From: Eledone cirrhosa
Lineage: Eukaryota
Length of the DNA stretch: 64,000 bases
Assembly: GCA_964016885.1 (NCBI GenBank)
Contig: OZ024743.1
Coordinates: forward strand, 163,928,001 to 163,992,000
Reading direction: 5' to 3'
A program made the translations under genes and the position numbers. Each line of letters starts with the position of its first letter. Within the stretch, counting starts at the first letter, position 1. Below the pieces are notes generated by a model. The model made no database searches. It was not told the DNA's origin and worked only from the letters and a program-made list of their open reading frames with translations. This document shows, one piece after another, positions 12,901 through 15,399 of the stretch.

Positions 12901-15399
12901 AGCAGTAAAGGGCGAGACGTACCCAGAAAGGACTCCAGGCGCCTAAAGAAGTCCGGTCGTCTGGCCCCTGTGGACGGCACCTTCTTTGCTACTGCTCACA
13001 TCCAAGACCACCAACTTACCGTCCGGGTCCCGGAAGATCGACCTTACCTCGAGATTCAGTCCTTTCCTAAACAGCACTACCACCCCACCTCCCATTCCCG
13101 GCCTGCTGTGTAGATCTGATAGTCGTCGAAAATGGGGCTAGTGCGCGCGTTGCGGAAATTCTGGTCTCGCTGACGGCAATCACATCCATTTCCAGCGACC
13201 TGAGGTCGTTGAGCAGGCGACGCTGCTTCCCGGGTGACCCCAGGCCGCGAACATTTAAACTTCTTACTCTTAATATGGCCATGTTGGCAAGCTAAAAGAG
13301 AGAGGGAAGGTTTACTTACCTCCCCGGATCTTGTGAAGGTCGGATGGTTTGACCTCCATGGTTGCTGGGGTTTTTTGGGGGGAACCCCTTTAAAAGTCTC
13401 GATGTGGGTTTCACATTCGGGGTTCCCACATCTTGAGGAAAGCTCTCCCGAATTTCTTTGAAGGAATCGAGTGATATTCGGACCAGAAGCAAATCTTCTG
13501 GCACGCAAAATGTGCTCATTTCAAAGATCTCCCCCTCTGTTTGAATGTCCTCGCTTCATGCTAAGAGGGCCATCAGTTTATCGTTGGCCCTTCTGACAAG
13601 CACAAAGTTTTTAACATTTTGTTGGTGTGGTTTTATTTGTTTTCGTTTTGGTGACTGTGGTGGTGGTGGTTTTAGTGGTGTTGTTTCGGGTATGTCTGTG
13701 GTTGTTGTAGGTGTGGTGTCTGCAATTTCAGGTATTTGTGTGTTTATTTGTACTTGTGTTTGTTTAGGTTGTTTGCGTTTCAGGGATTGTCGATGTTGGT
13801 GCTGATGTTATTGGGGAAGTGTTTGCGTTAGTGGTGTCTGTATTTTTTGTTGGGGCTTTTTTGGGGTGAGTTTTCTCTGTTTTGTTTTTGTACTTTTGGG
13901 TTTTCCTTCATCTTCGCTGCTGGAAGACAAAGGGTCTGTGGCTGTGAGTGTCTCTGTGTCTGTGTGTGCATTTATTGTTTTGTCTATGTGTATAATTAGA
14001 GGGGTAAGGAGAGTGGGAGAGCTTGGATTGGTTTCGGTGTTGGTGGTGGTCCGGCTGTTTTTGATGTTGGTGTTGTTTTTGGTGGTGGTGGTGCAGCTTT
14101 CCGTGCTGACACTGGCGTTGGCAACAAAGGTGGTTTGTGACCCCCTACATTCTTGCGCTGCAGGCAGAAGGCTTGCAGATGCGTTGCTTCCCCGCAGACG
14201 AAGCAGTGCGGCCTTCTTCCCTCAGTGACCAGTTGGATTATTGTCCCGTCCTTTAGGCGGGTAAAATCCGGGTTGTTGTTCATGTCCTCCGGTTTCATTT
14301 GGAGAAGAATCCCCAAATCCATTCCGGACCAGTCTTTTCTCTCTGTCCTTTTGATATCCAAGGGGGTAGTGTCTGTCCCCTCCTCGATTACGCATCCCAG
14401 GAGCCACCATATGTTCATTCCTGGTGGGATCCTGGAAATGCAGACCTTTACTGTCCTTTTACCCATGTAGGACGGGTTCATGATAATGCGTTCCGTTCTG
14501 CAACGGGTCACTGAGTGCTTAATAGCAAGGGCCTCGGTTGTGAACAGTACCGAGATGGTACCGAACTGTTTGGTCCTTGCTTTATACTCTATGTCACTTT
14601 CGATGCACTCCAAGCAGCCTAAACCTCTGCTTGGCTGGCAAGTTCCACTTTGCGTGTCTGCACTGAAATGCATCAAAAGTACACCGTCCTCCTTTGCATG
14701 GCCGCTATTGCCCTGTCCGGGATGGTCAGGATTGCCCAGGACTTCTCTCGTTTAATTAACCTCCACGCCTGGGCCAACTGTTCATCTTTATCGCTAATAT
14801 CAATATTCAATAAGCGCTTTGTTTTTGCTGCTGCTGCAGCAAAGGTGGTGCCTCTGTTGCTCTTGTTGTTGGTGTTGTCGTTATTGCTGTTGGTGTTGGT
14901 GTTGTTGTTGTTGTTTTATTTGTTGTTGCTGTTGCCACCGCCATCCGTGTTTACATTGAAGCTGTCAGTGTTATTGTTGTTGTTGTTCTGAGTCGTTGTT
15001 GTTGTGGTGGTGGTGGTGGTGGTGGTGATGTCGTTTTGAGATGATACTGCTACTAACACAGAAGAGAGCGGTTGTGATGGTAGCTTTTGTGTTTTGCCTT
15101 CACATTCAGTGGAATGGTCGACAGACATGTCTGTAGTAGTCGTAGTTGTGGTGAGATCTACAGTGGCTGCTTCTGAACTTTTGACCTGAACGTTGTTTAC
15201 CGTTTCAAGGTCGAAAATTTCCATTTTTTTTTTATTATGTGGGGAAGCGATTTTTTTCGAAGTTTTTAAAAATAAATCTGAATATTCGGGCGAGTACCTT
15301 ATGTTTCATTAACGACAAGAAAATACAAAAAATAATACTTTAAAACGGCTTACGAACCTTTTCCCCCGCGGACTTGTACGTCTTCATATATGTGCGTCC
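9945..15399 (-). mobile_element. L1/Tx1-clade non-LTR retrotransposon, near full length, decayed
   Basis: ORF1 from ATG 15224 with CCHC knuckle CFVCGEATHLQAFC. ORF2 from ATG 13282: SLNVRGL, GDWN, SDH, KSPGVDG, VRQGCPLS, AYADD, C-terminal C..C..ET..H...C. 3' GTGGCTAATAAATGAAA. Flanked by (AAT/GAT) tracts. Confidence 0.93.

Follow-up and report, generated by a model that had tools for sequence, protein, structure and literature searches.

In HIV-1, foamy viruses and Drosophila copia, all of them LTR elements, one splice donor balances genomic against subgenomic RNA: the major donor of HIV-1 suppresses the upstream poly(A) site, foamy viruses express pol from a spliced mRNA and copia produces a spliced gag RNA. 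For the Arabidopsis Ty1/Copia element EVD, a single U1 site is described as serving splicing and, at the same time, as blocking premature termination (PMC5580714). Among LINEs, human L1 SpIREs are reported to derive from spliced L1 RNA that was retrotransposed, with splice events inside the 5' UTR or reaching into ORF1, and to represent dead ends (PMC5860796). In mouse L1, ORF1 and ORF2 are reported to have been exchanged between families (PMC3600994). The Tx1 clade within the L1 group includes Kibi, Koshi and the Tx1 elements of crocodilians (PMC4494074), and 13 recently active L1-Tx1 families are described for Octopus vulgaris (PMC13282606).

Two elements of this kind are present in the window, by which we mean the whole stretch of 64,000 nucleotides of Eledone cirrhosa DNA analyzed here (contig OZ024743.1; assembly size 3.0 Gb). 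Families were labelled by the first four residues of ORF2: element 1 represents MAIL (family 1), element 2 represents MANI (family 2), and MADI, MAVL, MAML, MAVI and MANV complete the set of seven. In common with Tx1 elements, they possess two ORFs, an ORF2 with endonuclease, reverse transcriptase (RT) and zinc finger, and a habit of inserting into microsatellites. ORF2 of intact sister copies matches Pfam PF03372, PF00078 and PF13966, and the same domains are detectable piecewise in the window; no Pfam match to RNase H was obtained for ORF2 of the window or of the intact sister copies. Among solved structures, human L1 ORF2p is the best PDB match to ORF2 (E 5e-53), and a weak Pfam match to zf-CCHC was found in an intact sister ORF1. 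The apurinic-type endonuclease, RT and C-terminal zinc finger without RNase H are those of the L1 group, as are the separate upstream ORF1, the lack of LTRs and the 3' poly(A) signal followed by a simple tail. In most aligned copies, (ATT)n precedes the 5' end and trails the 3' end, i.e. the elements exhibit the microsatellite target preference of the Tx1 clade. Their assignment to Tx1 is putative and follows the first-pass annotation described below. Relatives at about 40% identity exist, which are known without their DNA context.

Several observations concern the genomic surroundings. Four young copies with a spacing of about 5.8 kb and a 58-nt repeat between them form a tandem array (G000:C1:4238321-4255750; L085-L088, L111-L113), and in some of its copies both ORF1 and ORF2 are open. 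One locus (L064) has a second ORF2 start 3 kb downstream, and another (L076) consists of a family-1 5' part fused to the 3' end of a sister family. Elsewhere in the window, two long stop-free frames of 263 and 306 aa on the minus strand (37040-38730) possibly belong to another retroelement. Copies of a dispersed repeat, presumably a SINE, are located at 4255-4501 and 15650-16250, and the same repeat flanks many of the fetched loci.

Table. Positions of the features of elements 1 and 2 in the window.
Feature	Position	Strand	Remark
Element 1, full-length decayed L1/Tx1-type LINE (MAIL)	9949..15400	-	between (ATT)n tracts; Pfam RT
GTAAGC in 5' UTR	15348..15353	-	deletion product in this copy
ORF1	13312..15224	-	frameshifted in element 1; CCHC knuckle; family stop TAA 13314-13312
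AATAAA of element 1	13632..13637	-	about 320 nt upstream of donor; similar place kept in most families
5' splice donor GAG/GTAAGT of element 1	13314..13322	-	overlaps ORF1 end
Pyrimidine tract	13294..13310	-	predicted partner: purine tract behind ORF2 stop
AG formerly proposed as acceptor	13292..13293	-	G takes part in a compensatory base pair
5' arm of predicted helix, element 1	13247..13344	-	ORF1 tail, donor, spacer, ORF2 start
ORF2 of element 1	10229..13282	-	endonuclease, RT, zinc finger; carries deletions and frameshifts
3' arm of predicted helix, element 1	10172..10268	-	across ORF2 stop TAG (10231-10229)
AATAAA and (ATT)n tail of element 1	9937..9961	-	
5' arm of predicted helix, element 2	43474..43571	+	
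Donor of element 2	43489..43497	+	GAG/GTGGGT here, GAG/GTGAGT in most MANI copies
AG of element 2	43527..43528	+	7 nt before ORF2 ATG (43536)
ORF2 of element 2 (MANI)	43536..46898	+	frameshifted
3' arm of predicted helix, element 2	46860..46940	+	across ORF2 stop

A first-pass annotation of this DNA had noticed a splice-site cassette at the ORF1/ORF2 junction of element 1, and its reading of the letters is correct: the minus strand reads GAG/GTAAGT...TTTTAG/CTTGCCAAC ATG, the interval from GT to AG measures 28 nt (13319-13292) and the ATG (13282-13280) follows 9 nt past the AG. The same architecture had been claimed for element 2, where a GT (43492) and an AG (43528) do occur in this order; they span 37 nt and the ATG follows after 7 nt. 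The annotation had further considered chance an unlikely cause and had proposed conservation of GT and AG in the family as a check. For the donor both points stand, as it is kept in all seven families, whereas the AG is confined to MAIL and MANI and occurs at that place in 0/39 cases in the five sister families, one point-mutant AG located 1 nt before the ATG aside.

The donor GT is retained in 30/30 MAIL copies and in 28/30 MANI copies, the usual MANI donor being GAG/GTGAGT. We compared 105 distinct junctions, excluding loci that had been fetched for a changed donor or acceptor; families 1 and 2 are over-represented in this sample owing to how loci were fetched. Of these junctions, 97 match the 9-mer of the window donor at 7/9 places or better, as opposed to 1.2% of 2516 other 40-nt windows. 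When junctions were collected by the ORF2 N-terminus alone (2586 matches), the first 30 were inspected, and none of them lacked the donor GT or the pyrimidine tract. Ranked against all 236-325 GT sites of a copy, the donor is among the best 2-3 in each of seven representatives. It has the spliceosomal 5' consensus, its variants (GTAAGT, GTGAGT, GTAGGT) stay within this consensus, and relative to ORF1 it is found in phase 0, 1 or 2; therefore, neither a stop codon nor the protein sequence explains it. In eight distant metagenome relatives (27-32% identity) no donor above 6/9 was detected. An AATAAA lies upstream of the donor in element 1, with a counterpart at about 43171 in element 2, and in 6/7 groups half or more of the copies have AATAAA 290-420 nt upstream of the ORF2 ATG. 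This hexamer may simply be coding, or it may be a poly(A) site that is held down by U1.

The AG behaves differently. Within the two families it is well kept (29/30 MAIL and 28/30 MANI copies in the family alignments; 24/25 MAIL and 27/31 MANI junctions in the set of 105). Among the first 30 of the 2586 ORF2 N-terminus matches it is present in 7/8 MANI junctions and in 0/22 from MADI, MAVL, MAML and MAVI. Altogether 5/7 families lack it, the youngest among them, and in the ORF2 tree both families that possess it join one that does not, namely MAIL joins MAVL and MANI joins MANV. Thus, the AG is not conserved together with the donor. In MAIL the interval between GT and AG varies from 26 to 32 nt, and the (CT)n tract varies like a microsatellite. 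A subfamily with one C fewer (L077, L079; 17/40 copies counted by eye) has ORF1 in frame with ORF2, the two being parted only by the TAG of the AG, possibly a read-through arrangement. Judged by conservation, only the donor half of the GT-AG motif is a splice signal.

The spacer, including the pyrimidine tract and the AG, shows complementarity to the region surrounding the ORF2 stop, about 3 kb away. The predicted duplex comprises about 95 nt per arm, juxtaposes the ORF2 AUG and the ORF2 stop and extends over the exon side of the donor, the intronic bases of which are only partly paired. In whole-element scans of copies that retain the ORF2 end, this end is mostly where the best partner of the spacer is located; in L062, L070 and the two copies of the window, however, the best-scoring stretch is somewhat upstream of it or in another place. 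When compared with 100 shuffles, the helix reaches z values from -4.5 to -8.1 in five representatives of four families and beats 100/100 shuffles for MANI, MADI, MAML, MAVI and element 2, but it is weak in MAIL (z -1.6 to -2.0; 4, 8 and 9 of 100 shuffles as good). Cognate arms pair better than permuted ones (p 2.8e-5 for 9 representatives, a value made too small by kinship), with the cognate arm ranking first in only 5/9 rows. Compensatory changes were seen in 27 of 42 MAIL/MAVL loci with both ends: at spacer position -10, which is the G of the AG, a G-C pair in 11 copies corresponds to A-U in 12 sister copies, and at position -8 U-A in 8 copies corresponds to C-G in 14. Each of these changes represents one evolutionary event, yet a two-sided one. 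Global folding of a young MADI copy recovers the helix, with 62/98 bases of the arm paired to the distant one, whereas it is absent from the folds of decayed MAIL copies (2/2). In an ungapped inverted-repeat search, the arms made the top five in L111 and L120 but in neither of the window elements nor in L118. Like the donor, the helix is missing in the eight distant metagenome relatives. As a separate observation, 3/40 copies (L354, L358, L360) have a 5' truncation at most 80 nt ahead of the ORF2 ATG, close to where the predicted helix ends. Taken together, the complementarity exceeds that of shuffles in the representatives other than those of MAIL and is accompanied by compensatory changes, and a conserved donor combined with a predicted helix bracketing ORF2 is real at the level of sequence.

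Chimeric elements were encountered at the donor. A search for the MANI exon end followed by a base other than G yielded 39 matches, 18 of which are mutants, while 21 are joins exactly at the donor, leading into two sites, each after CAG. Eighteen joins continue into a MAML element after a CAG located 23 nt before MAML's own donor, and 3 continue after another CAG, 75 nt upstream. They represent about 19 elements and two, perhaps three, events in which, as expected for SpIRE-like products, the sequence up to a GT donor is joined to sequence following an AG acceptor. All MANI-to-MAML joins inside a 30-nt window share one spacing (13/13), and none of 15 matches at a control AG was chimeric. The chimeric product retains donor and helix, and it is this product that spread to the copies counted above. 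L268, a candidate for a new event, turned out to be a mutant of a known chimera. No other joins were present among the 100 matches listed, with 868 native copies counted and the known chimeras excluded by first letter. On the donor side, 33/33 MAIL/MAVL matches, 6 MAML matches and 9 G-starting MANI/MAVI matches are all point mutants or one-base indels, and MADI gave 0 matches. Three further family groups thus yielded no chimeras at their donors, in searches that, save for directly tested joins, miss exons starting with GT, and of which the one for A/C/T-starting joins left out MAVI, MANV and one MANI subfamily. Four runs resembling genomic contigs, compared with a young copy and with a MANI junction, showed no joint at the donor among the minority of matches listed, a result without weight either way.

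Since the elements form tandem runs, also beside other families, splicing across neighbours is feasible, and we consider it the probable, albeit by no means certain, origin of the chimeras. They suggest that the donor is used, if rarely. This reading is limited by the search having been anchored at the donor and by a 2-nt AG microhomology, which would also fit template switching; moreover, ordinary homologous swaps occur within the same 90 nt as the chimeric joins. Several ORF1 types, 70-85% alike, are found on near-identical ORF2s (L163, L169, L189, L293, L296, L096, L118), and homologous crossovers are concentrated in the final 90 nt of ORF1.

How, then, are these signals to be explained? 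The first-pass annotation had proposed that ORF2 is expressed by splicing, either through removal of the 28-nt interval or through joining of a 5' UTR donor to the AG. Retention of GT, pyrimidine tract and AG within MAIL and MANI would be in line with a micro-intron, as would the finding that removal of the interval fuses ORF1 with ORF2 in frame in one MAIL subfamily and in most MANI copies. However, the fusion is out of frame in element 1's own subfamily, five families, including the youngest, do without the AG, and the AG covaries with its partner base behind the ORF2 stop. The shortest validated human introns are reported to measure 37-65 nt, although the lower limit of the host animal may differ (PMC4463651). 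The annotation had also suggested a search for genomic copies precisely lacking the interval: there are none among 495 MAIL copies, 40/40 consecutive MAIL copies picked by their ORF2 start retain it, and the two MANI matches are both deletions. A match with an apparent join between two families (L222) proved to be a short deletion. As to the 5' UTR variant, the suggested donor GTAAGC arises from a 6-nt deletion in element 1, the six bases being present in 6/6 other copies that cover this UTR segment and in the 29 readable of 30 5'-end loci. None of these 29 loci jumps from the 5' UTR to ORF2; all continue past the UTR. The search for the micro-intron join would overlook either join from the 5' UTR (T at -4 or -3), so this result relies on the 40 ORF2-start copies and the 5'-end loci, obtained with a query that favoured unspliced copies. 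The annotation's observation is thus confirmed in part, and expression of ORF2 by splicing at the AG is rejected as very improbable; a foamy-type model, in which a spliced mRNA provides the enzyme, is contradicted by the same data. It is less credible still that the entire cassette is a chance assembly of stop codon, microsatellite and AG. GTRRG does accommodate TAA, TGA or TAG and the (CT)n tract does vary like a microsatellite, but such an origin is at odds with the donor frequency relative to background, its rank among GT sites, the compensatory pairs and the performance of the helix against shuffles and permuted arms.

A more serious alternative considers ORF2 a regulated intron, which is spliced from the donor to the AG of the ORF2 stop and yields plentiful ORF1-only mRNA, the helix setting the ratio. 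Every family representative inspected ends ORF2 with YAG and has G as the next base (A in element 1 of the window), often after a pyrimidine-rich stretch, and the stop TAG of element 1 is a possible acceptor. With this join, ORF1 would reach a stop after at most four codons in 7/10 subfamily representatives, where about 3.7 are expected from the phases having an early stop (the MANV phase being judged by eye), and Ty1/Copia is described as making a spliced gag-only RNA (PMC5580714). On the other hand, 3/10 representatives would gain long extra tails, and pairing with the ORF2 start is predicted for the stop AG, too, along with its pyrimidines. Genomic copies of the join amount to 0 for MAIL/MAVL and 0 for MADI/MAVI, and three MANI/MAML matches are unrelated DNA, one MANI subfamily and MANV being outside the search; this blank weighs little because LINE RNA without ORF2 is seldom copied, a cis preference described in PMC5860796. 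In some families the ORF2 stop resembles a donor itself (TAG followed by GTAGGT or GTGAGA; L122, L302-L313), and a second strong donor is found about 60 nt upstream of the stop in Arg-Trp codons (L114, L123); both are explicable by pairing and coding. We regard the regulated intron as possible but rather unlikely. Improbable, in our view, is a role of the helix in translation, with the donor motif as by-product: the helix would hide the ORF2 AUG until ribosomes have finished ORF1, or would deliver the ORF2 protein to its own 3' end. Such a role could account for the covering of both ORF2 AUG and ORF2 stop, for the short distance from the ORF1 stop to the ORF2 AUG (6-33 nt in the copies inspected) and for the failure to find a regular spliced product among genomic copies. 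It leaves unexplained why the donor consensus survives changes of phase and stop codon, also where it is unpaired, and why the chimera breaks fall exactly at the donor.

The explanation we favour, to which we give about an even chance of being right, starts from a conserved donor without a conserved acceptor and assumes that U1 binds the nascent RNA before a helix of about 95 nt hides the donor. During transcription of ORF2 the donor would be accessible and probably bound by U1 snRNP, which would shield the nascent RNA from premature 3'-end formation along the 3.4 kb transcribed before the 3' arm exists. The predicted helix would then likely close over the donor, the ORF2 start and the ORF2 stop, and by concealing the donor it would keep most RNA unspliced and allow full-length RNA to survive. 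A minority of the RNAs would undergo splicing: in rare cases into the ORF1 tail of an adjacent element, which would have produced the chimeras, and possibly also to the AG of the ORF2 stop, which would perhaps yield ORF1-only RNA. This explanation is supported by a donor conserved whatever its phase, by an AG lost from sister families, by complementary arms that show compensatory changes, by the lack of spliced genomic copies and by chimeric joins at the donor. Against suppression by U1 stands the small number of AATAAA in ORF2 (0-2 per copy), and against the helix in MAIL its weakness relative to shuffles and its lack in both decayed-copy folds. More tentatively, ORF2 might be viewed as a structure-gated intron, the helix choosing between genomic and ORF1-only RNA and the donor grafting ORF1 onto a neighbour's ORF2, thereby building families.

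For such a dual role of U1, EVD would be the nearest working precedent. In EVD, too, a conserved 5' donor sits where the structural gene ends, and U1 is proposed to act in both splicing and full-length transcription; this element is described as having LTRs, a single ORF and an intron that has been demonstrated (PMC5580714). In contrast, the elements studied here are bicistronic LINEs with no adjacent conserved acceptor and with a predicted long-range helix. With human SpIREs they would share a LINE RNA that has splice sites and spliced forms able to retrotranspose, as described in PMC5860796, but here the donor resides at the end of ORF1, and the chimera kept donor and helix. The account of ORF exchange in mouse L1 (PMC3600994) contains no link to splice sites in the parts accessible to us, whereas here two joins fall exactly at the donor beside homologous swaps. 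Similarly, a donor at the ORF1 stop and pairing of the flanks of ORF2 go unmentioned in the accessible parts of the Tx1 reports (PMC4494074, PMC13282606), and no LINE combining an ORF1-stop donor with an ORF2-bracketing helix was found in the open-access literature, supplements and Repbase reports being outside this search.

The finding touches on two open questions, namely how abundant ORF1 and scarce ORF2 product are obtained from one LINE RNA and why seemingly harmful splice sites persist in such elements. Donor and helix provide two named cis-elements open to mutation and rescue in intact young copies. Splicing would also be a route by which ORF1 is exchanged between LINE families, should the chimeras turn out to be its products.
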